DNA of 45,069 nt from a phage (PZ334583.1), one strand, 5' to 3'. Counted from the stretch's first letter, positions 1 to 45,069 are shown. Program-made: numbers and translations. The notes: a model not told the origin generated them from the letters alone.

Positions 1-1899
1 ATGGCAAAGGCTAGAGAATCACAGGCAGAGGCATTAAAGCGGTGGGAAAACCTTAAAGAACTACAAGACACTTTTAAATATACAGCGGAAGGTTTGCTTC
101 TCTTTGCAGATACAGTTATCCATAACTTAATTGCAGGCAACCCTCATCTGATTCGTATGCAGGCTGATATCTTGAAGTTCCTATTTTACGGACACAAGTA
201 CCGCCTCATCGAAGCGCCTCGTGGTATCGCTAAGACAACACTATCAGCAATCTATACGGTATTCCGTATTATTCATGAACCGCATAAGCGTATTATGGTT
301 GTGTCCCAAAACGCCAAGCGAGCAGAGGAAATCGCAGGTTGGGTAGTTAAAATCTTCCGTGGCTTAGACTTTCTTGAGTTTATGCTGCCGGATATCTACG
401 CTGGGGACCGTGCATCCGTTAAGGCGTTTGAGATTCATTACACCCTACGTGGTAGTGATAAGTCTCCTTCTGTATCCTGTTACTCAATCGAAGCAGGTAT
501 GCAGGGTGCTCGTGCTGATATTATTCTAGCGGATGACGTAGAGTCGATGCAGAATGCTCGTACGGCAGCGGGCCGTGCCTTGCTTGAGGAGCTGACTAAG
601 GAGTTTGAATCTATCAACCAGTTTGGGGATATCATTTACCTTGGTACACCTCAGAACGTAAACTCTATCTACAACAACCTACCTGCTCGTGGTTACTCTG
701 TTCGTATCTGGACTGCGCGTTACCCTTCAGTAGAGCAAGAGCAATGTTATGGCGACTTCCTTGCACCTATGATTGTTCAAGATATGAAGGACAACCCAGC
801 ACTTCGCTCAGGGTACGGGTTGGATGGTAATAGTGGTGCACCTTGTGCCCCTGAAATGTATGATGATGAAGTCCTGATTGAGAAGGAAATCTCTCAGGGT
901 GCTGCTAAGTTCCAGCTTCAGTTCATGCTTAACACTCGCATGATGGATGCTGACAGATACCCATTACGCCTGAACAATCTAATCTTCACCTCGTTTGGTA
1001 CAGAGGAAGTCCCTGTGATGCCTACGTGGAGTAATGATTCCATAAACATCATTGGTGATGCACCTAAGTATGGTAACAAGCCTACGGATTTCATGTACAG
1101 ACCTGTAGCTCGCCCATATGAATGGGGTGCTGTCTCCCGCAAGATTATGTATATCGACCCTGCGGGTGGTGGTAAGAACGGAGATGAGACGGGTGTAGCC
1201 ATCGTATTCCTGCACGGCACATTCATTTATGTGTATCAGTGCTTTGGTGTACCTGGCGGATACCGAGAGTCGTCCCTGAATCGCATTGTGCAGGCCGCAA
1301 AGCAGGCGGGTGTTAAAGAGGTATTCATTGAGAAGAACTTTGGTCATGGCGCGTTTGAGGCGGTAATTAAGCCGTACTTTGAACGAGAGTGGCCTGTAAC
1401 TCTGGAAGAGGATTACGCCACCGGACAGAAAGAGTTGCGTATCATTGAGACGCTGGAGCCGCTCATGGCAGCACATAGGCTTATCTTCAATGCAGAGATG
1501 GTGAAGTCAGACTTTGAGTCGGTACAGCACTATCCGCTTGAACTACGCATGTCCTACAGTCTTTTCAATCAAATGTCGAACATAACGATTGAGAAGAACA
1601 GCCTCCGGCACGATGACCGCCTAGACGCCCTGTATGGCGCTATACGGCAATTAACTTCTCAGATAGACTATGACGAGGTTACACGGATTAATCGCCTCAG
1701 AGCGCAGGAGATGCGAGATTACATCCATGCTATGAACACACCTCATCTACGCAGGGCAATGCTATATGGGGATTACGGTACTGAGCGAAGAGTGACCAAC
1801 ACTTCCGTAGCGATGCAGCAGCGAGTTTACGGGCAGAACTACCGAAATAAATCGGCAAGCAGAAATACACTTTCTGCAAGGATTTCAAGGACTTATTAA
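1..1899 (+). CDS. terL: Terminase large subunit (T7 gp19-like); its ATG and first 14 nt are also present at 45056..45069
   Basis: 632-aa ORF; N-terminal sequence recognised as T7-group large terminase; position upstream of the tailspike genes as in SP6/K1-5-type genomes; RBS AAGGAG at 45042..45047. Confidence 0.93.
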   Translation: MAKARESQAEALKRWENLKELQDTFKYTAEGLLLFADTVIHNLIAGNPHLIRMQADILKFLFYGHKYRLIEAPRGIAKTTLSAIYTVFRIIHEPHKRIMVVSQNAKRAEEIAGWVVKIFRGLDFLEFMLPDIYAGDRASVKAFEIHYTLRGSDKSPSVSCYSIEAGMQGARADIILADDVESMQNARTAAGRALLEELTKEFESINQFGDIIYLGTPQNVNSIYNNLPARGYSVRIWTARYPSVEQEQCYGDFLAPMIVQDMKDNPALRSGYGLDGNSGAPCAPEMYDDEVLIEKEISQGAAKFQLQFMLNTRMMDADRYPLRLNNLIFTSFGTEEVPVMPTWSNDSINIIGDAPKYGNKPTDFMYRPVARPYEWGAVSRKIMYIDPAGGGKNGDETGVAIVFLHGTFIYVYQCFGVPGGYRESSLNRIVQAAKQAGVKEVFIEKNFGHGAFEAVIKPYFEREWPVTLEEDYATGQKELRIIETLEPLMAAHRLIFNAEMVKSDFESVQHYPLELRMSYSLFNQMSNITIEKNSLRHDDRLDALYGAIRQLTSQIDYDEVTRINRLRAQEMRDYIHAMNTPHLRRAMLYGDYGTERRVTNTSVAMQQRVYGQNYRNKSASRNTLSARISRTY

Positions 1900-1920
1900 T
1901 TACTGGACACTATAGAAGGA
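1898..1920 (+). promoter_or_regulatory. Phage RNAP promoter (SP6-like), putative +1 G at 1915
   Basis: aattactggacactatagaagga; matches the 13-copy consensus ATTTACYGGACACTATAGAAG; overlaps the terL stop. Confidence 0.8.
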
Positions 1921-2055
1921 AGGCCCAGATAATAAGATAAATAATAGGTAATATATAGGTTAACCTAGGTTATATAGGTATGCCTTAATATGGGTGTACT
2001 CCTGTACACCCTCTTCTTTACTACCTTACTATATTTACATAATAGGAGAGAGACA

Positions 2056-5653: not shown

Positions 5654-7837
5654 ATGCTACAAAGATTAGGGGCAATGTTTGTTCGGTATAAAAATAAAGT
5701 AGGTAATGCTATCGAGCGTACACTACAAAGTAAATTACAGGATGTAGTCAGTGTAAAGGACTATGGCGCCATTGGTGATGGGGTATATCGTTCACTTGGT
5801 GATAAATTTACCACGTTAAGTATCGCACAAGTAGTATACCCACATGCTGAAAGTTTAACTCAATCGCAAGATTGGGCGGCTATTCAGGCTGCACTTAATT
5901 CTCACTCAAAAGTGTACATTCCAGCAGGTAGATACATGCTATCTGATACCATTGAGATGAGCGGAGGTCAAACTCTGCAAGGTGACGGTATTGACTCTTG
6001 GGTTGCAGGTTATGCTGGGTTTGTACAAGATAGGCAAGGCACTCACCTTATAATGGTGGGAGATGGCAATAAGAAGTATACATTAGATCATGTATCTAAC
6101 TTCGATGTAGAAGGTGGTGTCATAGACAACCCAGCTAAGAGTGATTCTTATACTGCCACTGCACCTTCCCCTAATTACTCATTTACTAACTTCACTAATG
6201 CTAACGCCTCTGGTGCACAACGTGCTACATTGAAACCTTTCAGCGTAGCATTACGTTGCACAGGTCACGGTGGTGTTTACCTTCGTGACTTCCGTATTGT
6301 GCCTAATCACAGAGGGCAAGAAGGTTATAAGGATGAGTTGTCAACTGCATTAGGGGACGCATGGGATGTAGGTATTTGGCTGGAGAATACATCTGACTCA
6401 GTGTTATCTTCTGTGCAAGCAGTAGGTTACTGGCGCATTGCAGGTGTTATGAAGACTTGTATACCACAAGATGGTTCCTTTGTTGGTGGAGAGCGTGATA
6501 GGATATACAATTGCACATTACAAGGTTATCGTGGCTTCTTAGCACGTTCGCATGATACTTACCAAGTAGAAGAAGTATCAGGTAACACTGTATCGATTAA
6601 GTGGTCTGCATCTCACACTTTCGAACCTTCTGGTAAAGTTCGTATCCAAGGGAAAGACCGTAGTTATACTAGCCTGTCTGTATCTGGTGACAAATTAGTT
6701 TTCACTGGTATTGACGATGTATCAGATATTAATACCAAGAGCTATGTGAGAGTTTCAGGGTCTTCATTCGGAATGTCTGCTACTCAACTAAATAACACAT
6801 ACATCGCTGCATTAAACCATCATGCTCGCTTGCCAGCGACCTCTAATCTTTTAGATAATAGGTTTTCTACTTCGGCAGCTTGCTATGAAGTTGCAGGTGA
6901 ACCAATTCGTGCCATAAAATTATCTAACTGTACTGTCATTACTTGGGATGACATCTTAGGTATGACTGGTGGTATTAGGGACTTCCAGACGACAGATACT
7001 TACTTCGAGTCTCAGCCTTTCCGTACTTCTGTGCAAGGCTTGGCAAGCACCACACAACCTGCTGGTTCTCGCATGATTGCACTTCGTGGACGTCAAGGTT
7101 CTAAAACTACAGGCTATCAAGCTATCGGTTGTACTTATGGGCCGGGTGTAGACCTAAGCCCTCGTTATGAAAGCGATGTATCTCGTTACACAACTTCCGG
7201 TGGTATGTTCAATCCAAGAGAAGATTTGAACACAACTAAGCAGTTACCAATGAGGCAAGACGCTACTGAGCTATCTTCTACTTCTGGCTTATTCCTTACA
7301 CATGCTGTAGGTGGGAAGGCCTATGTTGGCGCTACCTCTGGTGATGCAACGCTTCAATCTAGAACTGGATCATTGAATATCCAATCAGGACTTCGTGTAC
7401 GCATTGGTGGCACTGATGGTAGTGGTTGGTATATTGCTGACAGTGCTAAGTTGACACCTACTGCTGACAATGCAAGGGCTTGTGGACAACCTAATGGACG
7501 ATGGACTGTTGTCTATGCTGTTAATGGTACAATCCAGACTTCTGATGGTAGATTCAAGGAAATCCTTGAGATTGAACAGGCAGAACTTGATGCTGGTCTT
7601 GAATTATCAGCAAACCTAATTAAGTATCGGTGGAATGGGGAAGATAAAATTCACTTTGGTTGCATAGCACAAGAAGTGATGTTAATCCTGGAGAAACATG
7701 GCCTAAACCCATTACAATATGATATGGTTCAGTATGATGAGGAGGCAGACATCTTTGGGGTAAACTATGCTGAACTCAACAGCTTCTGTATTGCAGCATT
7801 ATCGAGGAAGTTAAATGCCATTAATCAGATCAGTTAA
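5654..7837 (+). CDS. Tailspike 2: pectate-lyase-like beta-helix with C-terminal intramolecular chaperone (peptidase S74) domain
   Basis: 727 aa; RBS AAAGGAGG; VKDYGAIGDG motif (pectate_lyase_3-type beta-helix N-cap); C-terminus TSDGRFKE...IHFGCIAQ...GVNYAEL is the S74 chaperone. Confidence 0.9.
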   Translation: MLQRLGAMFVRYKNKVGNAIERTLQSKLQDVVSVKDYGAIGDGVYRSLGDKFTTLSIAQVVYPHAESLTQSQDWAAIQAALNSHSKVYIPAGRYMLSDTIEMSGGQTLQGDGIDSWVAGYAGFVQDRQGTHLIMVGDGNKKYTLDHVSNFDVEGGVIDNPAKSDSYTATAPSPNYSFTNFTNANASGAQRATLKPFSVALRCTGHGGVYLRDFRIVPNHRGQEGYKDELSTALGDAWDVGIWLENTSDSVLSSVQAVGYWRIAGVMKTCIPQDGSFVGGERDRIYNCTLQGYRGFLARSHDTYQVEEVSGNTVSIKWSASHTFEPSGKVRIQGKDRSYTSLSVSGDKLVFTGIDDVSDINTKSYVRVSGSSFGMSATQLNNTYIAALNHHARLPATSNLLDNRFSTSAACYEVAGEPIRAIKLSNCTVITWDDILGMTGGIRDFQTTDTYFESQPFRTSVQGLASTTQPAGSRMIALRGRQGSKTTGYQAIGCTYGPGVDLSPRYESDVSRYTTSGGMFNPREDLNTTKQLPMRQDATELSSTSGLFLTHAVGGKAYVGATSGDATLQSRTGSLNIQSGLRVRIGGTDGSGWYIADSAKLTPTADNARACGQPNGRWTVVYAVNGTIQTSDGRFKEILEIEQAELDAGLELSANLIKYRWNGEDKIHFGCIAQEVMLILEKHGLNPLQYDMVQYDEEADIFGVNYAELNSFCIAALSRKLNAINQIS

Positions 7838-8162: not shown

Positions 8163-8319
8163 TTTGATGTAGGCGTGTGTCAGCTCTCTCGCCCTCGCCC
8201 TCGCCGGGTTGCCCCCATAGGGTGGCCTGAGGGAATCCGTCTTCGACGGGCAGGGCTGATGTGCTCCTTGGATAGTACAAGGGAGGCGGAGGGAACGCCT
8301 AGGGAGGCCTAGGAATGGC

Positions 8320-8920
8320 TTAGTGGTGGACAAGGTGATTGCCTTAGTGAAGCCTCTTAGTGCATTCCTGAGGCCATTCAGGGCGTTTATGAGGTATTGA
8401 CAAGATGGAGGGGGGCGTGGGCTATCTGTTCGTTTCGTTCACTCCGCTTGCGCTACGTTCACTCGCTCACGTGTACCTTAGGCTATTCCTTTATGGATAG
8501 CTTAGGTTATAGCTTAGTGGCCTACCTTAGTTATAACCTTAGTGCATAGCTTAGTATCAGCTTAGTAGTGTACCTTAGTAAGTCTTAGTGTCTTCTCTTA
8601 GTGATTGCACATGCAAGCATGTAAGATGCCATTAGGTCGCGGTCGGTAGACCGCTAAAGAAGGAGAATAGTAATAAGATGCAGTAGGAGGAACACCAGAA
8701 GCCTAGCCAACCTAAGCTATCCTAGCTCTATATCTATTGCTTTTCCTTAGTCTAACACGTTAGACAACCTATCTTTTTCTTAGTGATGGTAACTTAGTGT
8801 TGACAAGATAATCTTAGTGTAATACTATGCATCACGTAGGCGGTGCTGAGGCACCTAGTAGCCAGCTAGTAAGGCATACGAAGAGACTAGCGCTTACATT
8901 GCTCTTTAACAATTTGCTTA
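8320..8920. repeat. Left-flank array of about 20 dispersed CTTAGTG / AGCTTAGT heptamer repeats (SRL-like), interspersed with host-type promoters
   Basis: ggcttagtgg, gccttagtga, cctcttagtg, tagcttaggttatagcttagtggcctaccttagttataaccttagtgcatagcttagtatcagcttagtagtgtaccttagtaagtcttagtgtcttctcttagtg, and further copies at 8780..8920. Confidence 0.7.
8800..8828 (+). promoter_or_regulatory. Candidate host sigma70 early promoter
   Basis: TTGACA (8800..8805), 17-nt spacer, TACTAT (8823..8828); sits in the early leader as the T7 A promoters do. Confidence 0.4.
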
Positions 8921-11553: not shown

Positions 11554-14181
11554 ATGCAAGACCTACACGCTATTCAACTTCAACTTGAAGAAGAAATGTT
11601 TAACGGCGGTATCCGTCGCTTTGAAGCGGACCAACAACGCCAGATTGCATCCGGTAATGAATCAGACACGGCATGGAATCGCCGCTTATTATCCGAGTTA
11701 ATCGCGCCAATGGCTGAAGGTATTCAGGCTTATAAGGAAGAGTACGAAGGCAAGCGCGGTCGTGCACCACGTGCATTGGCTTTCATTAACTGCGTAGAAA
11801 ATGAAGTGGCAGCGTATATCACGATGAAGATCGTAATGGATATGCTTAACACTGATGTAACCTTGCAAGCTATCGCTATGAATGTAGCTGACCGCATCGA
11901 AGACCAAGTGCGCTTCAGTAAACTAGAAGGCCATGCAGCTAAATATTTTGAGAAGGTCAAGAAGTCACTTAAGGCAAGTAAGACTAAATCATATCGCCAT
12001 GCGCACAACGTAGCGGTCGTGGCTGAGAAGTCAGTAGCTGACCGTGACGCTGATTTCTCTCGCTGGGAAGCGTGGCCTAAAGATACCTTGCTACAAATTG
12101 GTATGACCTTGCTAGAAATACTGGAAAATAGTGTATTCTTCAACAGGCAGCCTGTTTTCATCCGCACCTTGCGTACTAATGGCGGCAAACACGGTGTTTA
12201 CTACTTACAGACTAGTGAACACGTTGGCGAGTGGATAACCGCCTTCAAAGAGCACGTAGCGCAACTAAGCCCTGCATATGCACCTTGCGTTATTCCTCCG
12301 CGTCCGTGGGTTTCACCTTTCAACGGTGGGTTTCATACTGAGAAAGTAGCAAGTCGTATCCGCCTTGTTAAAGGCAACCGTGAGCACGTCCGTAAGTTAA
12401 CTAAAAAGCAAATGCCAGCGGTCTATAAGGCTGTTAACGCCTTACAAGCTACTAAGTGGCAGGTTAACAAGGAAGTATTGCAGGTAGTAGAAGATGTTAT
12501 TCGTCTAGACCTCGGTTATGGTGTACCTTCCTTTAAGCCGCTCATTGACCGCGAGAACAAACCAGCTAACCCTGTTCCTCTTGAGTTCCAACACCTGCGA
12601 GGCCGTGAACTGAAAGAAATGCTTACGCCGGAACAATGGCAAGCCTTTATCAACTGGAAAGGTGAATGTACTAAGCTGTACACCGCTGAAACTAAGCGCG
12701 GAAGCAAATCGGCGGCAACCGTTCGCATGGTTGGTCAGGCCCGTAAATATAGCCAGTTCGACGCAATCTACTTCGTGTATGCACTGGACAGCCGCAGCCG
12801 CGTCTACGCGCAATCTAGCACACTCTCACCGCAATCAAATGACTTGGGCAAGGCATTGCTCCGTTTTACCGAAGGGCAGCGTCTTGATAGCGCTGAGGCG
12901 CTTAAGTGGTTTTTGGTGAACGGGGCGAATAACTGGGGTTGGGATAAGAAAACTTTTGACGTGCGCACCGCTAACGTGCTGGATAGCGAATTTCAAGACA
13001 TGTGCCGCGACATTGCAGCCGATCCGCTGACCTTCACTCAATGGGTAAATGCTGATTCCCCTTACGGCTTCCTTGCATGGTGCTTTGAATATGCGCGTTA
13101 TCTGGATGCACTGGATGAAGGCACGCAAGACCAATTCATGACGCACCTACCCGTCCATCAAGACGGTAGTTGCTCTGGTATCCAGCACTATAGCGCGATG
13201 TTACGCGATGAAGTAGGTGCGAAAGCAGTAAACCTTAAGCCTTCTGACTCCCCTCAAGATATTTATGGCGCGGTTGCGCAGGTTGTTATCCAGAAGAATT
13301 ACGCCTACATGAATGCAGACGATGCAGAGACTTTCACATCTGGAAGCGTCACACTTACAGGTGCAGAACTGCGTAGCATGGCTAGTGCGTGGGATATGAT
13401 AGGAATCACTCGCGGCCTGACCAAAAAGCCCGTAATGACACTACCTTATGGCAGCACACGTCTAACCTGCCGTGAGTCAGTGATTGATTATATCGTTGAT
13501 TTAGAAGAAAAAGAGGCCCAACGGGCTATTGCGGAAGGGCGTACCGCCAATCCTGTACACCCTTTTGATAATGACCGTAAGGACAGCCTGACACCTAGCG
13601 CAGCTTATAACTATATGACAGCTTTAATCTGGCCTTCTATTTCGGAAGTGGTTAAAGCTCCTATAGTGGCAATGAAAATGATTCGTCAGCTTGCACGTTT
13701 CGCAGCTAAAAGGAATGAAGGCTTAGAGTACACCTTGCCTACTGGCTTCATCTTGCAACAAAAGATAATGGCGACAGATATGCTCCGCGTATCTACTTGC
13801 TTGATGGGCGAAATCAAGATGAGTCTACAGATTGAAACGGACGTAGTGGATGAAACGGCTATGATGGGCGCTGCTGCCCCTAACTTTGTGCACGGTCATG
13901 ATGCCAGTCACCTTATCTTAACGGTCTGCGACCTTGTTGATAAAGGGATTACATCTATCGCAGTAATTCATGATTCTTTTGGCACTCATGCAGGTCGTAC
14001 CGCAGACCTACGTGATAGTCTAAGGGCAGAAATGGTGAAGATGTATCAAGGCCATAACGCTCTGCAAAGCCTGTTAGATGAGCATGAAGAACGCTGGTTA
14101 GTAGACACCGGAATCCAAGTGCCAGAGCAAGGAGAGTTTGACCTTAACGAAATCTTAGTATCTGACTATTGCTTCGCATAA
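11554..14181 (+). CDS. Single-subunit DNA-dependent RNA polymerase (SP6/T7 family)
   Basis: 875 aa; [26 protein letters not shown]... and the catalytic C-terminus ...HDSFGTHA... recognised as SP6-type RNAP; RBS AGGAG. Confidence 0.97.
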
Positions 14182-14189
14182 TATTAATA

Positions 14190-14221
14190 GGCCATTCCTT
14201 CGGGAGTGGCCTTTTCTTTTT
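14190..14221 (+). terminator. Strong intrinsic terminator after the RNAP gene (early terminator analogue)
   Basis: ggccattcc-ttcg-ggagtggcc (UUCG tetraloop hairpin) followed by ttttcttttt. Confidence 0.8.
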
Positions 14222-14255
14222 ACCTACTACCGGTAACATTTCATTAACATAAAAT

Positions 14256-14271
14256 GTCTCACATGTGAGAC
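14256..14271. repeat. 16-bp perfect palindrome GTCTCACATGTGAGAC, copy 1, abutting promoter 14274
   Basis: exact sequence read; six copies in the genome. Confidence 0.9.
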
Positions 14272-14273
14272 TT

Positions 14274-14296
14274 ATTTACCGGACACTATAGGATAG
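14274..14296 (+). promoter_or_regulatory. Phage RNAP promoter (origin-associated; ATAGGATAG downstream variant)
   Basis: atttaccggacactataggatag. Confidence 0.7.
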
Positions 14297-14299
14297 CCG

Positions 14300-14430
14300 T
14301 CGGAGACGGGAAAGAAAGGGAAGATAAAGGATATAAAGGAAGTAATAGGTATTAAAGGTTATATAGGTTATCTAGGAATACCTATTACCTTCTTCCTTCC
14401 TCTTATTACTACTTAGAGGAAGGGCAGATC
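14300..14430. other. AT-rich, strand-asymmetric imperfect inverted repeat; candidate primary replication origin core
   Basis: purine-rich arm ggaaagaaagggaagataaaggatataaaggaagtaataggta..., pyrimidine-rich arm ...tacctattaccttcttccttcctcttatt; flanked by two palindrome-plus-promoter units; same position as the T7 primary origin. Confidence 0.4.
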
Positions 14431-14436
14431 TATGTT

Positions 14437-14452
14437 GTCTCACATGTGAGAC
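14437..14452. repeat. Palindrome GTCTCACATGTGAGAC, copy 2
   Basis: exact sequence read. Confidence 0.9.
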
Positions 14453-14457
14453 TTCGT

Positions 14458-14480
14458 ATTTACCGGACAGTATAGATAAG
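14458..14480 (+). promoter_or_regulatory. Degenerate phage promoter (ACAGTATAGATAAG)
   Basis: atttaccggacagtatagataag; C to G change in the core, may be weak or inactive. Confidence 0.4.
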
Positions 14481-14505
14481 ACTAATTTACTTTGGAGATT
14501 TAACC

Positions 14506-14634
14506 ATGCGTAACTTTGAGAAGATGACCCGTAAAGCTAACCGTTTTGACATGGAAGAAGGGCAGAAGAAAGGCAAGAAGCTGAATAAACCTGTCCGTGA
14601 CCGTGCATCTAAACGCGCTGCGTGGGAGTTCTAA
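14506..14634 (+). CDS. Small basic ORF (42 aa)
   Basis: ATG 14506 with GGAG 8 nt upstream; MRNFEKMTRKANRFDMEEGQKKGKKLNKPVRDRASKRAAWEF. Confidence 0.4.
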   Translation: MRNFEKMTRKANRFDMEEGQKKGKKLNKPVRDRASKRAAWEF

Positions 14635-14637
14635 GTT

Positions 14638-16626
14638 ATGGCTATTATTCAGAATGTACCGTGTCCTGCCTGTCAAAAGAATGGACATGATATTACTGGC
14701 AACCATCTTATGATATTTGAGGATGGCGCTGGTTACTGTAACCGTGGTCACTTCCATGATAACGGTAAACCTTATTACCACAAGCCGGAAGGTGGCATCG
14801 AGATAACCGAGTTACCTATTACTGGCAATATCAAATATACACCTTCTCAATTCAAAGAAATGGAGAAGGAAGGGAAGATAAGCGACCCTAAATTACGTGC
14901 CATCGCACTAGGTGGTATGCGTATGAAAGACCGTTGGGAGGTCATGAATGAGCAAGAAAGGGCAGACCAAGAAGCAGAGTGGAAGCTTGATGTTGAATGG
15001 TTCCTCACGCTTAAGCGTAAGAACCTTGTTTCCCGACACATTCGCGGCGACATTTGCGCATTGTATGATGTACGTGTCGGACACGATGAAGAGGGTAGAG
15101 TCTCGCGGCATTACTATCCACGCTTCGAGAAAGGTGAGCTAGTAGGAGCTAAGTGTCGCACATTACCTAAAGACTTTAAGTTTGGTCATTTAGGTAAACT
15201 CTTTGGTATGCAAGATCTTTTCGGGATGAATACTTTGTCTCACGTGTTAGACAAGGGAAGACGAAAGGATTGCTTGCTTATTGTGGGTGGGGAACTGGAT
15301 GCGCTAGCAGCGCAGCAGATGCTCCTTGATTCTGCCAAAGGTACTAAGTGGGAAGGACAACCATATCATGTGTGGTCTGTCAACAAGGGCGAGTCTTGCC
15401 TTGAAGAGATAGTGCAGAACCGTGAGCATATCGCCCAATTCAAGAAGATTATATGGGGTTTTGATGGAGATGAGGTAGGGCAGAAGCAGAATCAGCAAGC
15501 GGCTCGCCTGTTTCCTGGCAAATCCTATATCCTTGAATACCCCTCTGGTTGCAAAGATGCTAACAAGGCATTGATGGCTGGCAAGGCTAGAGAGTTTGTA
15601 GATGCATGGTTTAATGCCAAGTCATCTGATGAAGTCTTTGGTAGCCAGATTAAATCTATCGCATCTCAAAGGGATAAGCTCAAGGCTGCACGTCCAGAGC
15701 AAGGACTATCATGGCCTTGGCCTAAGCTGAACAAGGTAACGCTAGGTATTCGTAAGAACCAACTTATCATTGTAGGCGCAGGCTCTGGTGTAGGTAAGAC
15801 TGAGTTCCTTCGTGAAGTAGTTAAGCACCTCATTGAAGAACACGGTGAATCTGTAGGCATCATTTCTACAGAAGACCCGATGGTCAAGGTGTCCCGTGCT
15901 TTTATCGGCAAGTGGATTGATAAGCGTATTGAGTTACCGCCAACCAACGACCCGAAAGAAGATGGATACCGTGAGGTGTTCGACTACACCGAGGAAGAAG
16001 CTAACGCCGCCATTGATTATGTAGCCGATACAGGGAAGCTGTTTGTAGCTGACCTAGAAGGTGACTACTCGATGGAGAAGGTAGAGCAGACCTGCCTTGA
16101 GTTTGAGGCTATGGGTATTTCCAATATCATCATTGATAACTTAACGGGGATTAAATTAGATGAGCGTGCTTTTGGTGGGAAGGTTGGTGCACTTGATGAA
16201 TGCGTCAAGCGGATTGGTACTATCAAAGACCGACACCCGGTTACTATATTCCTTGTATCACACCTTACACGTCCTCCGGCAAACCGGACCCAACACGAAG
16301 AAGGTGGCGAAGTTATCCTTTCTGACTTCCGAGGCTCAGGCGCTATCGGATTCTGGGCATCTTACGCCTTGGGGATTGAGCGTAATACAAGAGCTGAAAC
16401 GCTTGACGAAAGGACTACCACGTACATCTCATGTGTCAAAGACCGCGACCAAGGAATATTTTCCGGTACTCGTATAATGCTTAAAGGTGATATTGCTACT
16501 GGTCGCTTACGTGAACCAGAGCAAAGATCTCGACCGTTTGATACTGGTGCTCCAAAAGAACAAACTGTACCAGAAGAAGTGATTGATAAAGGAGGTTTTA
16601 TTGCTGACGAAGTTGAAGAGTTTTGA
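14638..16626 (+). CDS. DNA primase/helicase (T7 gp4-like) with acidic C-terminal tail ending in Phe
   Basis: N-terminal Cys4 zinc ribbon (CPACQ...CNRGH), Walker A GAGSGVGKTEF, C-terminus ...FIADEVEEF; RBS GGGAG. Confidence 0.95.
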   Translation: MAIIQNVPCPACQKNGHDITGNHLMIFEDGAGYCNRGHFHDNGKPYYHKPEGGIEITELPITGNIKYTPSQFKEMEKEGKISDPKLRAIALGGMRMKDRWEVMNEQERADQEAEWKLDVEWFLTLKRKNLVSRHIRGDICALYDVRVGHDEEGRVSRHYYPRFEKGELVGAKCRTLPKDFKFGHLGKLFGMQDLFGMNTLSHVLDKGRRKDCLLIVGGELDALAAQQMLLDSAKGTKWEGQPYHVWSVNKGESCLEEIVQNREHIAQFKKIIWGFDGDEVGQKQNQQAARLFPGKSYILEYPSGCKDANKALMAGKAREFVDAWFNAKSSDEVFGSQIKSIASQRDKLKAARPEQGLSWPWPKLNKVTLGIRKNQLIIVGAGSGVGKTEFLREVVKHLIEEHGESVGIISTEDPMVKVSRAFIGKWIDKRIELPPTNDPKEDGYREVFDYTEEEANAAIDYVADTGKLFVADLEGDYSMEKVEQTCLEFEAMGISNIIIDNLTGIKLDERAFGGKVGALDECVKRIGTIKDRHPVTIFLVSHLTRPPANRTQHEEGGEVILSDFRGSGAIGFWASYALGIERNTRAETLDERTTTYISCVKDRDQGIFSGTRIMLKGDIATGRLREPEQRSRPFDTGAPKEQTVPEEVIDKGGFIADEVEEF

Positions 16627-17145: not shown

Positions 17146-17161
17146 GTCTCACATGTGAGAC
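17146..17161. repeat. Palindrome GTCTCACATGTGAGAC, copy 3 (extended stem cttgtctcacatgtgagacagg)
   Basis: exact sequence read; 30-bp context nearly identical to the copy at 39815. Confidence 0.9.
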
Positions 17162-18444: not shown

Positions 18445-18649
18445 AGTCAGTAAGGTTTGCTCTTGCGGTAAAGGTTATCGCAGTCGTATTGATGGTAAGT
18501 GTGGACATTGTAGGTCTAAGAAAGAGGCTGCTTTGTTTGACAAGTACCACAATGAATTAGCCTATAACTACCCACATCTAACACCTAATTCTTTATTAGG
18601 GCTTGGTTATAGGGCTAAATACTTTGGAGCAATCTATGAAATCAATTGA
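18431..18649 (+). CDS. Small Cys-rich (zinc-ribbon-like) protein (72 aa)
   Basis: ATG 18431; CSCGKGYRSRIDGKCGHC; overlaps the DNAP start by 14 nt. Confidence 0.45.
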   Translation: MKTIKVSKVCSCGKGYRSRIDGKCGHCRSKKEAALFDKYHNELAYNYPHLTPNSLLGLGYRAKYFGAIYEIN

Positions 18650-21464: not shown

Positions 21465-21487
21465 ATTTACTGGACACTATAGAAGGA
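21465..21487 (+). promoter_or_regulatory. Phage RNAP promoter followed by an AT-rich TAGGT-repeat leader
   Basis: atttactggacactatagaagga; downstream ctaggtttataaggtagtataggtaattaag. Confidence 0.85.
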
Positions 21488-21551
21488 AAGCCTAGACAAT
21501 CTAGGTTTATAAGGTAGTATAGGTAATTAAGTAAATATAGGAGATATAAAC

Positions 21552-21929
21552 ATGTCTATGGTAACTACTCTGGTATTTGTAGCTCAATACTTTCGTGGTC
21601 TGGCTAATAAGTTCAAGTCCAAGGCTATCAAAGCTATTGAGTCTCGCATCGAGGCAGTACAGGCAGAGCAGGTTAAAGTTGAAGAACATCGTAGTTCTAA
21701 AATGATTGACTGCCATAACCGCTACTATGCATCTCGTGATGACCTTAATGCACGCCAAGTCAAAGAGGTTGAAGAGATGCTGGCACGTCACCAGCAAGAG
21801 CGCGACAGTCTGAAAGCTGAATTTGAAGAGAACAAGGCATCCATCGCCCTTGTACATCAAGCCGCATCTGACAGCCTGAAGAAAGAGATTGTTATGCTGG
21901 AAATTGAGTTAGACAACCTGACCAAATAA
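21552..21929 (+). CDS. Hypothetical coiled-coil protein (125 aa)
   Basis: RBS AGGAG; heptad-like charged helical sequence. Confidence 0.65.
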   Translation: MSMVTTLVFVAQYFRGLANKFKSKAIKAIESRIEAVQAEQVKVEEHRSSKMIDCHNRYYASRDDLNARQVKEVEEMLARHQQERDSLKAEFEENKASIALVHQAASDSLKKEIVMLEIELDNLTK

Positions 21930-23608: not shown

Positions 23609-23620
23609 TTGATGCCCTGT

Positions 23621-23646
23621 CTGCCTTAGTGTAGGCAGGGTCTTTT
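23621..23646 (+). terminator. Terminator-like hairpin
   Basis: ctgcct-tagtgt-aggcag followed by ggtctttt. Confidence 0.45.
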
Positions 23647-36854: not shown

Positions 36855-39802
36855 TGGCAATTGAGCGACAAGCAGTACAAGGTCTGCCACAAGTGCAGGC
36901 CACTTCTCCTAATGTCATGACCTTTGCACCTCAGCGAGTTGGAGGTGTGGAGGCTGGCGTAGCTTCTACCTCCGGTAGTCGATTTATCGAAGACCTTATT
37001 CGAGCAGCCAGTAGTGTAGCTGATGTAACCACTGGTATCCTTAATCAAAAGATTGAGGAAGATAAGGTTGTTCAAATGGAACGGGCATATAACGGATTAA
37101 TGCCTTCTGAGGATGCAACTCGTGGTGGCGCTCGTGCTAACATGCTTGTCAAAGCTCAACTGCTAGCTAATGATGAAGCAGCACGAATGAAAGACATGGC
37201 TACTCGTTTCCAAGGAACGGATGACGAGTGGACACAACTTATGGTTGACTCTCGTAATGAGATGCAGAATAAGCTGTTCCAGCAATACCCTGAGTTGCAA
37301 GGTGACAAAGATACTATGCGTATGGTCACTAATGTCTTCCAAGAACAGCAGCCTCAGATTTGGGCGACACGAACCCAGCATAAACTTGACCGTGAACAAG
37401 CAGACCGTGAGGATACCTTTGACGGGCGAGTGGCTTCTACTTGGGATTCTAATATTGACCCTGAAGCATCTGGCTATGCTTTACAGGAACGAATCCGCGA
37501 AGGTCTTACTCAAGGATTACTACCTGAACAGATGCACAAGAAGTTAGTCCAGCGAGCAATTTCACTTGCACAAGGCGGTGATGTTAGCATGGCTGAAGCC
37601 CTGAAGTATGTGAAGGACGATAAGGGTGTTTCTGTTTATGCTAAGAATCCACAGCTTATCACAGCCATCACTAGTGGTAATGCAGTTTGGGCTAGGAATA
37701 ATGTAGCTGATGTAACTCGTATGTCTTTCGAAGTTAAAGAATCCTACCTTGCAGGTGATTTAACTGATGAAGAATTGTTGGAACGAGCACAGCACATTAA
37801 TAATCTGACAGGTAACTCTGTCTTCTCTAATCCAGAGCTAGAGGCACTGATGCGCCAACGGGCTAAGCAGAATGCAGAGCTAGGTGCAATGCAGGATATG
37901 CGACGTGAGCTTTACTCCGACCGCCTGACTGGCTTCCAAGGTAAGACTGATAAAGAGAAGAAGGCTTACATTGATGTTATCAAACAGGATAGCCAACTTT
38001 ATGCAGACCAGCAAATCAAACAACGTGGCTTGGACCCTTACAGTCAAGAGGCTGAAGCTATTCGTGGTGCAGTGGAAGTGCAGCGCCTGCAATTCATGAA
38101 CTCCAAAGGCTTAGTGGATGATACCTTTGAGTCTCGTATCAAAGCCATGGAATCTATGCTATCGCCTGAGCACTTTGCCAAGGGCGAACCACAGGAGTTG
38201 ATGACTATTCGCCAGTTGTGGGAACAGTTGCCAGAAGAGAGCCGAGGTGTCTTTGGTGACACGGTGAATGGCTACATGGATAACTACAACACTGCACTAC
38301 AAATGGGAGAGACACCTTTGCAGGCTGCAAGGTTTGCGCGTGAAGCACAGCAGAAATTCTCTCGTACTGAGAAGGAAACCAAGAAGTTCAACTCAGCTAT
38401 TGGAGATGCACTGGATGAGGTATCTGGTGCTGGCTGGTTTGATGGTAAAACCGAAGTGTCAGACTTAGGTAAAGCTATTGCGGAAGAAGAGTTACGAGCT
38501 AAGGCCAATATGTTGTGGTCTAGTGGTATGCGTAACATGGATTCTATCAAGAAGGCTTTAATTACTTGGGGCAATAAACGCTACACTCAAACAGAGGATG
38601 CAAAGACTTCCGGTGGCTATTTCATTAAAGGTGATTACACTTCTGCATCTGATATGCTTATGTCAGTTGGGAAAGGCGTAAACCCTACCGATGTACCTCT
38701 GGCGCTTGGTAGGTATGTAGAAACACAGATGCCAGAATTGAAGAAGGAGCTTCAAGAGTGGGAAACTAAAGATGATATATACATTGATTACAATGAACAG
38801 AAAGGTACTTTCGTGATTCGTGCTGGTGCAGCAGGTCGCCCTCTTTCTGGAGTAATCCCTGTAACCTCTTTAGATACCACTTCACTACTAGATTCTGCCT
38901 ATCAGAAGAAAGTAGAGGAACGAGATAAAGGCGAGTATGTTCACCCTTATCGTACAGATATTGGTGCACAAGAGCCTATGCCAGCTAAACCCACTGCCAA
39001 AGATATTGGTAAATTTGGACTAGCTAACTTCCTCATGTCTTCTGCTTTTGCTTCTGGTGAGAATCTGCCTTCTAACTTCGAGATTAACTATCGAGGTAAT
39101 ATGCAACAATTCTATGACAAGCTAGCTATGGATGAGAATAAAGATAAAGTTGGCTTTAATAAGGCAACTGGAACCTTTACTCCATATAAAGATGCTCACG
39201 GTGAGTCTATCGGTTACGGTCATTTCTTAACGGAAGAAGAGAAGAGAAACGGGTATATTAAGATTGGTGATGAACTAGTTCCCTATCGAGGGTCTATGTC
39301 TCAGCTTACAGAGAGCAAGGCTCGCGCTCTTATGGAGCAAGATGCCAAGAAGCATGTGCCTCCTACTCGTGACTGGAAGATTCCGTTTGACCAGATGCAT
39401 CCTGCACAGCAACGTGGTTTGATGGATTTAACCTACAATTTAGGTAAAGGTGGAATCCAGAACTCACCGCGTGCTCTTGCTGCATTCAAAGCTGGTAAGC
39501 TTACGGAAGGCTTTATCGAAATGCTGGGCACTGCATCAAGTGAAGGTAAACGTATTCCGGGCCTACTGAAGCGACGCGCTGAGGCATACAATATGGCAGC
39601 TGCTGGTGGTGTACCTAAGATCACAGAAGTGGAGACGAGGGAAGATGGCTCTATGTGGGTTAAGTTTGGTGGACCTATGCCAGCAGGCTCTGTTTCTGCG
39701 TGGACGCATAAACGTATTGGAGCCGATGGCTGGTATCAGGTTTATGAGGCTGCACCTACCAAGTTAGCTAAAGACTCTAAGGTAGGTAAAGTTAAATTGT
39801 AG
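36854..39802 (+). CDS. Internal virion protein B (gp15-like) with C-terminal lysozyme-like peptidoglycan hydrolase domain
   Basis: 982 aa; C-terminal region ...GESIGYGHFLTEEE...QQRGLMDLTYNLGKGG...GKRIPGLLKRRAEAYNMA resembles phage lysozyme-type muramidases. Confidence 0.8.
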   Translation: MAIERQAVQGLPQVQATSPNVMTFAPQRVGGVEAGVASTSGSRFIEDLIRAASSVADVTTGILNQKIEEDKVVQMERAYNGLMPSEDATRGGARANMLVKAQLLANDEAARMKDMATRFQGTDDEWTQLMVDSRNEMQNKLFQQYPELQGDKDTMRMVTNVFQEQQPQIWATRTQHKLDREQADREDTFDGRVASTWDSNIDPEASGYALQERIREGLTQGLLPEQMHKKLVQRAISLAQGGDVSMAEALKYVKDDKGVSVYAKNPQLITAITSGNAVWARNNVADVTRMSFEVKESYLAGDLTDEELLERAQHINNLTGNSVFSNPELEALMRQRAKQNAELGAMQDMRRELYSDRLTGFQGKTDKEKKAYIDVIKQDSQLYADQQIKQRGLDPYSQEAEAIRGAVEVQRLQFMNSKGLVDDTFESRIKAMESMLSPEHFAKGEPQELMTIRQLWEQLPEESRGVFGDTVNGYMDNYNTALQMGETPLQAARFAREAQQKFSRTEKETKKFNSAIGDALDEVSGAGWFDGKTEVSDLGKAIAEEELRAKANMLWSSGMRNMDSIKKALITWGNKRYTQTEDAKTSGGYFIKGDYTSASDMLMSVGKGVNPTDVPLALGRYVETQMPELKKELQEWETKDDIYIDYNEQKGTFVIRAGAAGRPLSGVIPVTSLDTTSLLDSAYQKKVEERDKGEYVHPYRTDIGAQEPMPAKPTAKDIGKFGLANFLMSSAFASGENLPSNFEINYRGNMQQFYDKLAMDENKDKVGFNKATGTFTPYKDAHGESIGYGHFLTEEEKRNGYIKIGDELVPYRGSMSQLTESKARALMEQDAKKHVPPTRDWKIPFDQMHPAQQRGLMDLTYNLGKGGIQNSPRALAAFKAGKLTEGFIEMLGTASSEGKRIPGLLKRRAEAYNMAAAGGVPKITEVETREDGSMWVKFGGPMPAGSVSAWTHKRIGADGWYQVYEAAPTKLAKDSKVGKVKL

Positions 39803-44341: not shown

Positions 44342-44624
44342 ACATGCAGCTACAGAGGATGAGGTTGGCATTCTGCATGGTGCTATTACCAAAATCTTCA
44401 ATAAGAAAGCACAGGCAATACTGGACACTATAGAAGAAGACCCTGATGCAGCATTACATTTAGTGCCTGGTAAGGACATTGGTGCAATGTGTAAGTGGGT
44501 TCTTGATAACGGCATTACCGCCACACCTGCTGCACAGCAGGAAGAGTCCAAGTTATCTAAGCGCCTCAAGGCTATCCGAGAGGCATCCAGTGGCAAGATT
44601 ATTCAGTTTACAAAAGAGGAGTGA
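44325..44624 (+). CDS. Putative terminase small subunit (gp18-like)
   Basis: about 99 aa from GTG 44325 (RBS GGAGGG 44313..44318); immediately upstream of terL as in T7; contains a promoter-like sequence. Confidence 0.5.
   Translation: MSVHNKHAATEDEVGILHGAITKIFNKKAQAILDTIEEDPDAALHLVPGKDIGAMCKWVLDNGITATPAAQQEESKLSKRLKAIREASSGKIIQFTKEE
44416..44438 (+). promoter_or_regulatory. Near-consensus phage promoter embedded in the small-terminase coding sequence
   Basis: caatactggacactatagaagaa; would drive the HNH gene and terL. Confidence 0.6.
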
Positions 44625-44625
44625 T

Positions 44626-45069
44626 ATGCATAGATGGTGTGAATCTCAAGGTTATACCATCTTACCTTCTGGTGTCATCCTTTCAAAGGGTGGCACCCCT
44701 CTCAAACCATTCAAGGCGGGTAGGGGTTATTTAGCAGTTAAAATTAAAAATAAAGAAGGTAAATGGCGTAATGTCTATGTTCATCAATTAGTGGCTTATA
44801 AGTATTTACCTAAAACTAATAATGAAGTAAACCACAAAGACGGCGATAAGCACAACAATGATGTTAGCAACTTGGAGTGGGTAACAAGAAGCGAGAATAA
44901 CTATTTAAAATGCAATGGAAATGATAGGAGTGCCTTAAATAGCTATTTAGCAAGATTAAAAGATTGCTTCTTGCAAGGTAAGGGTGTAGCAGAAACCGCT
45001 AGACTTACTGGTAAAAGTGAACCAAGAGTTTCTTCTCTCTTTAAGGAGTGGCGAAATGGCAAAGGCTAG
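44626..45069 (+). CDS. HNH homing-type endonuclease, paralog 2, inserted between the terminase subunit genes
   Basis: 147 aa from ATG 44626 (RBS AGAGGAG); HNH motif EVNHKDGDKHNNDVSNLEW; paralogous to 16601..17089; stop TAG at 45067..45069 overlaps the terL start. Confidence 0.8.
   Translation: MHRWCESQGYTILPSGVILSKGGTPLKPFKAGRGYLAVKIKNKEGKWRNVYVHQLVAYKYLPKTNNEVNHKDGDKHNNDVSNLEWVTRSENNYLKCNGNDRSALNSYLARLKDCFLQGKGVAETARLTGKSEPRVSSLFKEWRNGKG

Follow-up and report, generated by a model that had tools for sequence, protein, structure and literature searches.

The 324-bp spacer (14182..14505) that separates gene 1.1 from the upstream RNA polymerase gene in the phage sequence PZ334583.1 (45,069 nucleotides; hereafter the window) is best described, on comparison with related phages, as the "middle-region entry" module of SP6-like phages, a counterpart in both position and architecture of the phi1.1A-R1.1-phi1.1B segment of bacteriophage T7. 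We favor, with modest confidence, the view that this module serves as a T7-type transcription-primed replication origin. The parts of the module are as follows.

14189..14221, + strand: intrinsic terminator (10-bp stem, UUCG loop, T-tract)
14256..14271, unstranded: palindrome copy 1, GTCTCACATGTGAGAC, ending 1 bp before promoter A
14273..14296, + strand: predicted phage-polymerase promoter A (phi1.1A-like), TATTTACCGGACACTATAGGATAG, +1 G at 14291; matches the phage promoter consensus
14297..14309, + strand: predicted 5' stem-loop of the promoter A transcript, CCGUC-GGA-GACGG, with covariation
14312..14381, + strand: phased AGG array of seven ~9-10 bp units, unit consensus about GTAATAGGTAAT
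14336..14394, + strand: imperfect long hairpin, predicted in the minimum-energy fold, between units 3-4 of the array and the pyrimidine arm AATACCTATTACCTTCTT
14395..14423, + strand: second hairpin, CCUUCCUCU / AGAGGAAGG (arms 14395..14408 and 14410..14423, 86% complementary)
14424..14426, + strand: 5'-GCA-3', the sole top-strand GCA between promoter A and gene 1.1, inside GGGCAGA
14437..14452, unstranded: palindrome copy 2, GTCTCACATGTGAGAC, without variation in 16 Vectrevirus sequences and ending 4 bp before promoter B
14457..14480, + strand: predicted phage-polymerase promoter B (phi1.1B-like), +1 G at 14475; single change from the core, C to G at -5

Anatomy and conservation of the module

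The promoter A 24-mer has three matches against none expected, and the 17-mer promoter core has 14, where 0.38 would be expected across the window; every one of the 14 is on the + strand. A preliminary description of the sequence had proposed a palindrome and promoter at this site, and both are present, far above chance. A lineage-specific promoter occupies the promoter A site in every examined relative having the module. The same description had placed a second palindrome and a degenerate promoter further downstream. Palindrome and promoter are indeed there, but "degenerate" is not borne out: the G at -5 is invariant in 16 Vectrevirus sequences, and the predicted promoter B is therefore a conserved variant rather than a decayed copy. 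All lineages with the module have a second promoter at this site, and in most cases it deviates between -5 and -1 in a manner conserved within the lineage; in the SP6-type and Klebsiella-phage lineages, this deviation is TATTG instead of TATAG. A T7-type origin contains a promoter for the phage's own RNA polymerase, and the predicted promoters A and B, by their match to the consensus, would provide it. In one relative (L045, 780..1012), a third promoter-like copy is located between the array and palindrome 2.

The predicted transcript of promoter A begins with a 5' stem-loop (14297..14309), for which 98.6% of cells are paired over 29 sequences and 10 cells are changed on both sides, a result equaled by none of 500 shuffles. 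Next comes the array, in which AGG occurs at 14317, 14328, 14337, 14347, 14356, 14365, and 14374 (spacings of 11, 9, 10, 9, 9, and 9) and to which Tandem Repeats Finder (TRF) assigns a period of 9. No other chain of this kind in the genome is as long; none of 100 genome shuffles exceeded five, and the best of 2000 local shuffles reached four. The same AGG phasing occurs in nine other lineages, beginning 7-9 nt after the 5' stem-loop, and a period-9 TAGGnnTAC array is found in the same place in L053, a metagenomic phage whose polymerase C-terminus is 49% identical. One relative (L037, 2012..2239) has an extra 10-bp array unit (CTAGGAATAC duplicated). The preliminary description had recognized AT-rich purine and pyrimidine arms in inverted orientation. 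These arms are real (89% and 86% complementary), and the purine arm can now be specified as the phased AGG array, with the pyrimidine arm built from inverted copies of the AGG unit. We also considered the TAGGT units as decoy promoter half-sites, as they resemble positions -15..-10 of the SP6 promoter; this idea was rejected, since the array stays AGG where promoters differ.

The stem of the intrinsic terminator (14189..14212), noted in the preliminary description as well, has the form AGGCCATTCC-TTCG-GGAGTGGCCT and is followed by TTTCTTTTT up to 14221. With its G+C-rich hairpin, its U-tract, and a stem maintained in relatives, the element has the features of an intrinsic (rho-independent) terminator, and it ranks second among terminator-like matches in 8-24 kb (10 pairs versus 11 for the top match at 23614..23641). 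The stem sequence varies among relatives with pairing kept, as are a TTCG or TCCG loop and a T-tract. The element is probably the end of early, host-polymerase transcription. The stem at 14190..14215 (GGCCATTCC..GGAGTGGCCTTT) is nearly the same as the upper stem of T7 R1.1 (L034 264..290; GGTCATTC..GAGTGGCCTTT). As SP6-type terminators have stems unlike that of the window, this likeness may be due to chance or to exchange between coliphages.

The order of the module (terminator, palindrome, promoter A, 5' stem-loop CCNUCGRAGANGG, AGG array, pyrimidine arm and hairpins, optionally a palindrome, promoter B, and gene 1.1) is kept in 36 distinct sequences whose polymerase C-termini are 72-100% identical, despite promoter specificities that differ between lineages. 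In four lineages at 45-49% identity (L053, L057, L062, and L067), the terminator is still there, as are a palindrome-preceded promoter, a purine-rich tract, and a second palindrome. Two of them, L053 and L057, retain promoter B and a gene 1.1-like open reading frame (ORF) as well, and L062 and L067 have a different ORF after the second palindrome. The region is certainly a conserved terminator and tandem-promoter control region.

Positional equivalence to the T7 primary origin

The genes that flank the spacer are as follows.

11554..14181, + strand: single-subunit RNA polymerase gene, the equivalent of T7 gene 1 (Pfam RNA_pol, E 5.5e-90; RPOL_N, E 4.3e-32)
14506..14634, + strand: gene 1.1 homologue, 42 amino acids (Pfam Phage_1_1, E 8.2e-16; 56% identity to T7 gp1.1)
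14638..16626: primase-helicase gene, after the gene 1.1 homologue

Because the next gene is homologous to T7 gene 1.1, the spacer is the positional counterpart of the T7 spacer between gene 1 and gene 1.1, which contains both phi1.1A (at 5848) and phi1.1B (at 5923); the equivalence of position suggested in the preliminary description is therefore upheld. Replication of T7 starts at phi1.1A/B, ~15% from the left end (PMC8373140; bioRxiv 10.1101/2024.10.01.616023). This is the primary origin, with phiOR and phi6.5 as secondary origins (PMC8373140), and RNA of 10-60 nt from T7 origin promoters is found at the 5' ends of nascent DNA (PMC8373140; bioRxiv 10.1101/2024.10.01.616023). In the window, promoter A is located ~6.04 kb (~13.5%) from the left end, as placed by the offset to K1-5, a map position close to the ~15% of T7.

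In addition to this location and to the flanking genes, the module shares with the T7 primary origin two tandem phage-polymerase promoters with no ORF between them, and an extremely AT-rich tract of low stability less than 100 nt from a promoter. The two differ in that the AT-rich tract of the window consists of a phased AGG repeat and its inverted complement, in that a palindrome, of which T7 has no copy, precedes each promoter of the module, and in that the early terminator is within the spacer here but after gene 1.3 in T7. The two spacers have no significant DNA similarity (alignment score of 27 versus a shuffle maximum of 28). Origin function is known in T7; the module of the window is a candidate.

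Duplex stability and sibling tracts

As a sequence metric that works on T7, we used a nearest-neighbor scan of duplex stability in windows of 60 or 100 bp. The four least stable windows of T7 are located directly after phiOL, phi1.1B, phi6.5, and phiOR (L116 417..476, 5931..5990, 18561..18620, and 39248..39307, respectively), and three of these four tracts (phi1.1B, phi6.5, and phiOR) belong to origins named in PMC8373140. Judged by its performance on the T7 sequence, the scan is a simple predictor of T7-type origins. When the window is scanned at a length of 100 bp, the first, second, and fourth ranks go to 1891..1990, 14321..14420, and 21493..21592, respectively, all of them immediately downstream of a phage promoter. 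The second of these has 30% G+C and is an AT-rich, easily melted region of the kind that a T7-type origin has right behind a promoter. The AT-richness argument of the preliminary description is upheld as well, as the scan that finds the origin-associated promoters of T7 also picks 14321..14420 and both tracts that had been likened to secondary origins. The SP6 counterparts of the three tracts rank first, fourth, and fifth, with SP6 12535..12634, the counterpart of the tract at 21466, being the least stable DNA of SP6. The third least stable 100-bp window (44727..44826, 24% G+C) lies in a coding region and not directly after a phage promoter; a weak promoter-like site occurs at 44417, ~300 bp upstream.

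The two further tracts are candidate sibling origins:

1899..1990, + strand: phage promoter immediately downstream of the terminase large-subunit gene, leading into an AT-rich tract of phased AGG/TAGGT (AGG spacings of 11, 10, and 9; least stable window)
21466..21552, + strand: phage promoter beyond the DNA polymerase gene, leading into an AT-rich AGG/TAGGT tract (AGG spacings of 9 and 9; fourth least stable)

The promoter and TAGGT tracts that the preliminary description had pointed out at 1898..1990 and 21465..21545 are real and, along with 14326, constitute the top three WAGGWW clusters of the genome. As at phiOR, phi6.5, and phiOL of T7, the least stable DNA of the genome lies right behind a phage promoter at these sites. 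The promoter at 1899 comes after the gene for the terminase large subunit, just as phiOR comes after gene 19. Unlike in T7, no phage promoter was found near the left end of the window phage as an equivalent of phiOL, and the tracts carry phased AGG units rather than CTTAAG-like motifs.

The start of the promoter A transcript is also distinctive. Its first 60 nt (14290..14349) are 82% purine, the highest of any 60-nt window in the genome, and form the second most RNA/DNA-hybrid-favoring 60-mer in the genome. The most hybrid-favoring 60-mer is at 8277..8336. A purine-rich transcript over a pyrimidine template just past the promoter, with a predicted persistent hybrid, is shared with R-loop-primed origins such as those of ColE1 (RNA II) and of the mitochondrial heavy strand, which uses a T7-like polymerase. 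The tract of the window differs from these in being A+G-rich rather than G-rich and in having no G-quadruplex potential. The fit of the hybrid metric to a persistent primer hybrid at promoter A is suggestive only, since the primary origin of T7, phi1.1A/B, is not flagged by it.

A proposed model for initiation at the module

The T7-like position, the conservation of the module, the low duplex stability, and the purine-rich promoter A transcript motivate the interpretation of the module as an origin. In the mechanism we propose, host-polymerase transcription of the early genes would stop at the intrinsic terminator, past the RNA polymerase gene, and the two tandem phage promoters would start transcription, at 14291 (A) and 14475 (B), into gene 1.1 and the primase-helicase gene. 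Promoter A would first transcribe a noncoding leader comprising the 5' stem-loop, the purine-rich AGG array, and the pyrimidine arm, which could fold back on the array. Within the easily melted array, this transcript would stay annealed as a hybrid of purine RNA and pyrimidine DNA and could be extended rightward by the phage DNA polymerase. The primase-helicase would then load on the displaced purine strand and prime the leftward fork. The promoter-plus-AT tracts at 1899 and 21466 may be further origins of the same type, and the module may, by its location, be the primary one.

The candidate origin has one GCA on what would be the displaced strand (14424..14426), a trinucleotide without statistical weight. 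The surrounding GGGCAGA does not vary among 16 Vectrevirus sequences and also occurs in SP6 and UAB78, and it is absent in BP12B and the Klebsiella-phage group. Tseng, Frick and Richardson reportedly identified GCA in 2000 as the recognition site of the SP6 primase.

Several points weigh against this model. The AT-rich tract of the window is located between the two promoters, whereas that of T7 follows both. The hybrid metric flags promoter A here and in SP6 but not phi1.1A/B of T7. The cumulative GC skew of the window is monotonic. Its change point is at 14303. Applied to T7, whose origin is at 5.9 kb, the method yields 2.1 kb instead, and due to this misplacement we give the change point no weight. 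Full-text literature searches returned no paper on the origin of SP6 or K1-5, and the genome papers on relatives are silent on an origin. According to a second-hand account (PMC4837284), Dobbins et al. 2004 put the SP6 origin at the DNA polymerase gene, which would favor the tract at 21466 as the primary origin. Lastly, transcription and RNA processing alone also explain every feature of the module.

A possible module for expression alone

This last point leads to the main alternative, possible though doubtful, namely that the module serves expression only. The promoters would drive the DNA-metabolism genes, 14336..14394 would be a processing or stability site like R1.1, AGG would provide a Shine-Dalgarno-like leader, and replication would start elsewhere, e.g., at 21466..21552 or 1899..1990. 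The arms of the long hairpin (14336..14353 and 14377..14394) are 89% complementary and would form a stem of ~17-18 bp, i.e., an irregular hairpin of roughly two helical turns as in sites of the R1.1 type, and cleavage by RNase III is putative. As with the RNase III site R1.1 of T7, the long imperfect hairpin would be in the transcript of the first promoter and upstream of the second. When compared with shuffles that keep the purine and pyrimidine halves separate, the hairpin is significant in 13 lineages (z = -4.3 here and -2.4 to -7.7 in 12 others), and for 10 of these 13 the fold of the + strand is better than that of the - strand. A hairpin at the place equivalent to 14395..14423 is likewise seen in SP6-type and L029-type folds. 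The compensatory changes of the 5' stem-loop also favor a role in RNA, as does the presence of 5' hairpins after several other phage promoters in the window, and the genome's real ribosome-binding sites (ATAGGAG and TAAGGAG) resemble the array units. The least stable DNA of SP6 is the tract after its DNA polymerase gene; an origin proposal near that gene is relayed by PMC4837284.

The hairpin itself is nevertheless less well maintained than the module. RNAalifold over 29 sequences recovers the 5' stem-loop only, with no consensus for the long hairpin, as the repeats leave the register of the alignment ambiguous. Four substitutions in the left arm within Vectrevirus split into two that preserve wobble pairing and two that are disruptive, and so are uninformative on the pairing. 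The sequence of the hairpin is unrelated to that of R1.1, and L053, L057, L062, and L067, the most distant lineages, keep the promoters, the palindromes, and the purine-rich tract but have no stable long hairpin. No long hairpins are formed by the AGG tracts at 1899 and 21466, and an Rfam scan of the whole window gave no matches. Expression alone also leaves unexplained why the three tracts are the least stable DNA of the genome, as the T7 origins are in T7.

A dispersed palindrome and the AGG array

The palindromes of the module were considered part of an origin block in the preliminary description. They are present but not specific to it. The 16-nt palindrome has eight matches in the window at three or fewer mismatches, against 0.18 expected; the six copies outside the module are as follows.

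8750: close to the left end, immediately ahead of the first sigma-70-like early promoter
15237: within the coding sequence of the primase
17146: intergenic, extended stem
18290: intergenic, extended stem
23128: upstream of another phage promoter, at a distance of 16 bp
39820: intergenic, extended stem

Three of the eight copies are adjacent to promoters. SP6 (L035) has syntenic copies at 493, 7071, 8547, 9383, 14255, 17752, and 30569, with arms GTCYAAC..GTTGGAC, and one copy is within the primase gene in both SP6 and the window phage. On account of its eight dispersed copies in the window and its syntenic copies in SP6, the palindrome is a dispersed element rather than an origin-specific one. 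All copies within one genome share one sequence, which differs between genera, and in other lineages the arms change yet stay complementary (GTCCAAC/GTTGGAC and GTCTACA/TGTAGAC). In distant lineages, with polymerase identity as low as 45%, GTCTACA..TGTAGAC immediately precedes both promoters. T7 has no copies, and palindrome 2 is absent in L025, L027, L028, and L029-31, though promoter B is kept there.

The copies at 17146, 18290, and 39820 lie in stems of 13-14 bp that include G.U pairs, and their flanks differ between SP6 and the window but still pair, which argues for a hairpin in a single strand rather than a binding site in duplex DNA. The promoter-adjacent palindromes score as weak terminators, with the A+T-rich upstream edge of the promoter as the U-tract, and the palindrome may punctuate transcription or RNA processing. 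Two other ideas were rejected. A strand-specific wobble is suggested by the predominance of U.G mismatches in SP6, but 124 copies are mixed (TG 11, CA 7, CT 8, and AG 7). The GTC at the palindrome ends is the type of site used by T7 primase; that of SP6 is reportedly GCA. A full-text literature search for the palindrome found nothing.

The AGG array and the GTC-N10-GAC element are kept in SP6-like phages to 45-49% polymerase identity and are absent from T7. It is conceivable but unlikely that together they form an undescribed system of cis-elements that is more than a T7-style AT tract, either an origin assisted by hairpins or iterons, to which a phage protein (e.g., an initiator or a helicase loader) would be recruited, or a set of sequence-specific RNA hairpins that punctuates transcription. 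The seven AGG units, at intervals of 9-11 bp, are direct repeats at helical phasing of the kind that characterizes iterons. Shared with plasmid and phage origins of that type are direct repeats, five to eight in number, that are spaced by the helical turn and have inverted copies beside an AT-rich region, but the units of the window are only 9-10 bp with a conserved core of 3-5 nt, and no initiator gene was found.

Likewise unlikely is an element operated by a protein, in which the palindromes, the AGG units, or both bind a phage or host protein that switches promoters A and B, or an iteron-like initiator or helicase loader. The spacing of 9-11 bp would put the AGG sites on one face of the helix and is conserved across lineages, and the inverted copies in the pyrimidine arm could be read in the same way. 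The 27-nt pyrimidine arm is, like palindrome 2, 100% invariant in the 16 Vectrevirus sequences. A single palindrome sequence per genome that differs between genera fits co-evolution with a binding factor, and its persistence upstream of both promoters also favors a protein-operated element. However, no candidate binding protein was identified, only three of eight palindromes are next to promoters, and the re-paired flanks of the three extended stems point to a single-strand hairpin instead. No cognate initiator protein is known from T7-like phages, and T7-type origins need none.

Least probable is a discrete noncoding RNA, a promoter A transcript of ~165 nt that would end at the palindrome 2 hairpin and UUCGUAUUU and act in trans through AGG/GGA, e.g., as a titrator of 30S subunits or of an RNA-binding protein. 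In its favor, the stretch from 14291 to 14430 contains no ATG, palindrome 2 followed by TTCGTATTTA scores as terminator-like, and 146 nt contain seven GGA and seven AGG motifs. On the other side, a stem of 6 bp would make a weak terminator, L025 and L027-L031 lack palindrome 2, and GGA is not conserved, the units of other lineages being mostly AGGU. A sponge for CsrA is a weak idea for this same lack of GGA conservation.

Genome context

By sequence similarity, the window represents the genome, circularly permuted, of a K1-5/K1E-like Vectrevirus (Autographiviridae, Molineuxvirinae, SP6-like group); over 13600..15200, its DNA is 93-98% identical to that of dozens of K1-5/K1E-like Vectrevirus phages. 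HNH homing-endonuclease genes are inserted beside gene 1.1 in several relatives, including UAB_Phi78 (L006, 893..1303), BP12B (L005, from 1004), and, after gene 1.1, L009, L016, L027, and L029; in UAB_Phi78 the insertion is between promoter B and gene 1.1. The neighborhood of gene 1.1 is an insertion hot spot. In SP6 (L002/L035, 6271..6468), gene 9 is annotated as 65 amino acids with a start upstream of the promoter B start site. This N-terminal extension is probably misannotated, given that the gene 1.1 homologue proper is 42 amino acids in length. Near the left genome end, as placed here, are tandem repeats at 8280..8313 (AGGGAGGCCT x3.3) and an array of the CTTAGT type with periods of 12, 24, and 48 at 8471..8579, which recall the short-repeat arrays beside the terminal repeats of T7.

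Significance

An element of this kind is ordinary for the T7 supergroup; the AGG array and the palindrome are conserved parts that it does not explain. If the module is an origin, it would offer a compact element of ~250 bp for phage-dependent replicons, which have already been built with T7 phiOR (PMC8373140). The AGG array and the dispersed palindrome provide targets for mutation, which could show what an origin of this type needs in addition to a promoter and A+T-rich DNA. An origin at this site would further extend the T7 model, in which the phage's own polymerase primes replication at tandem promoters, to the SP6/K1-5 branch, which is used in phage therapy against the K1 capsule and is the source of SP6 polymerase.

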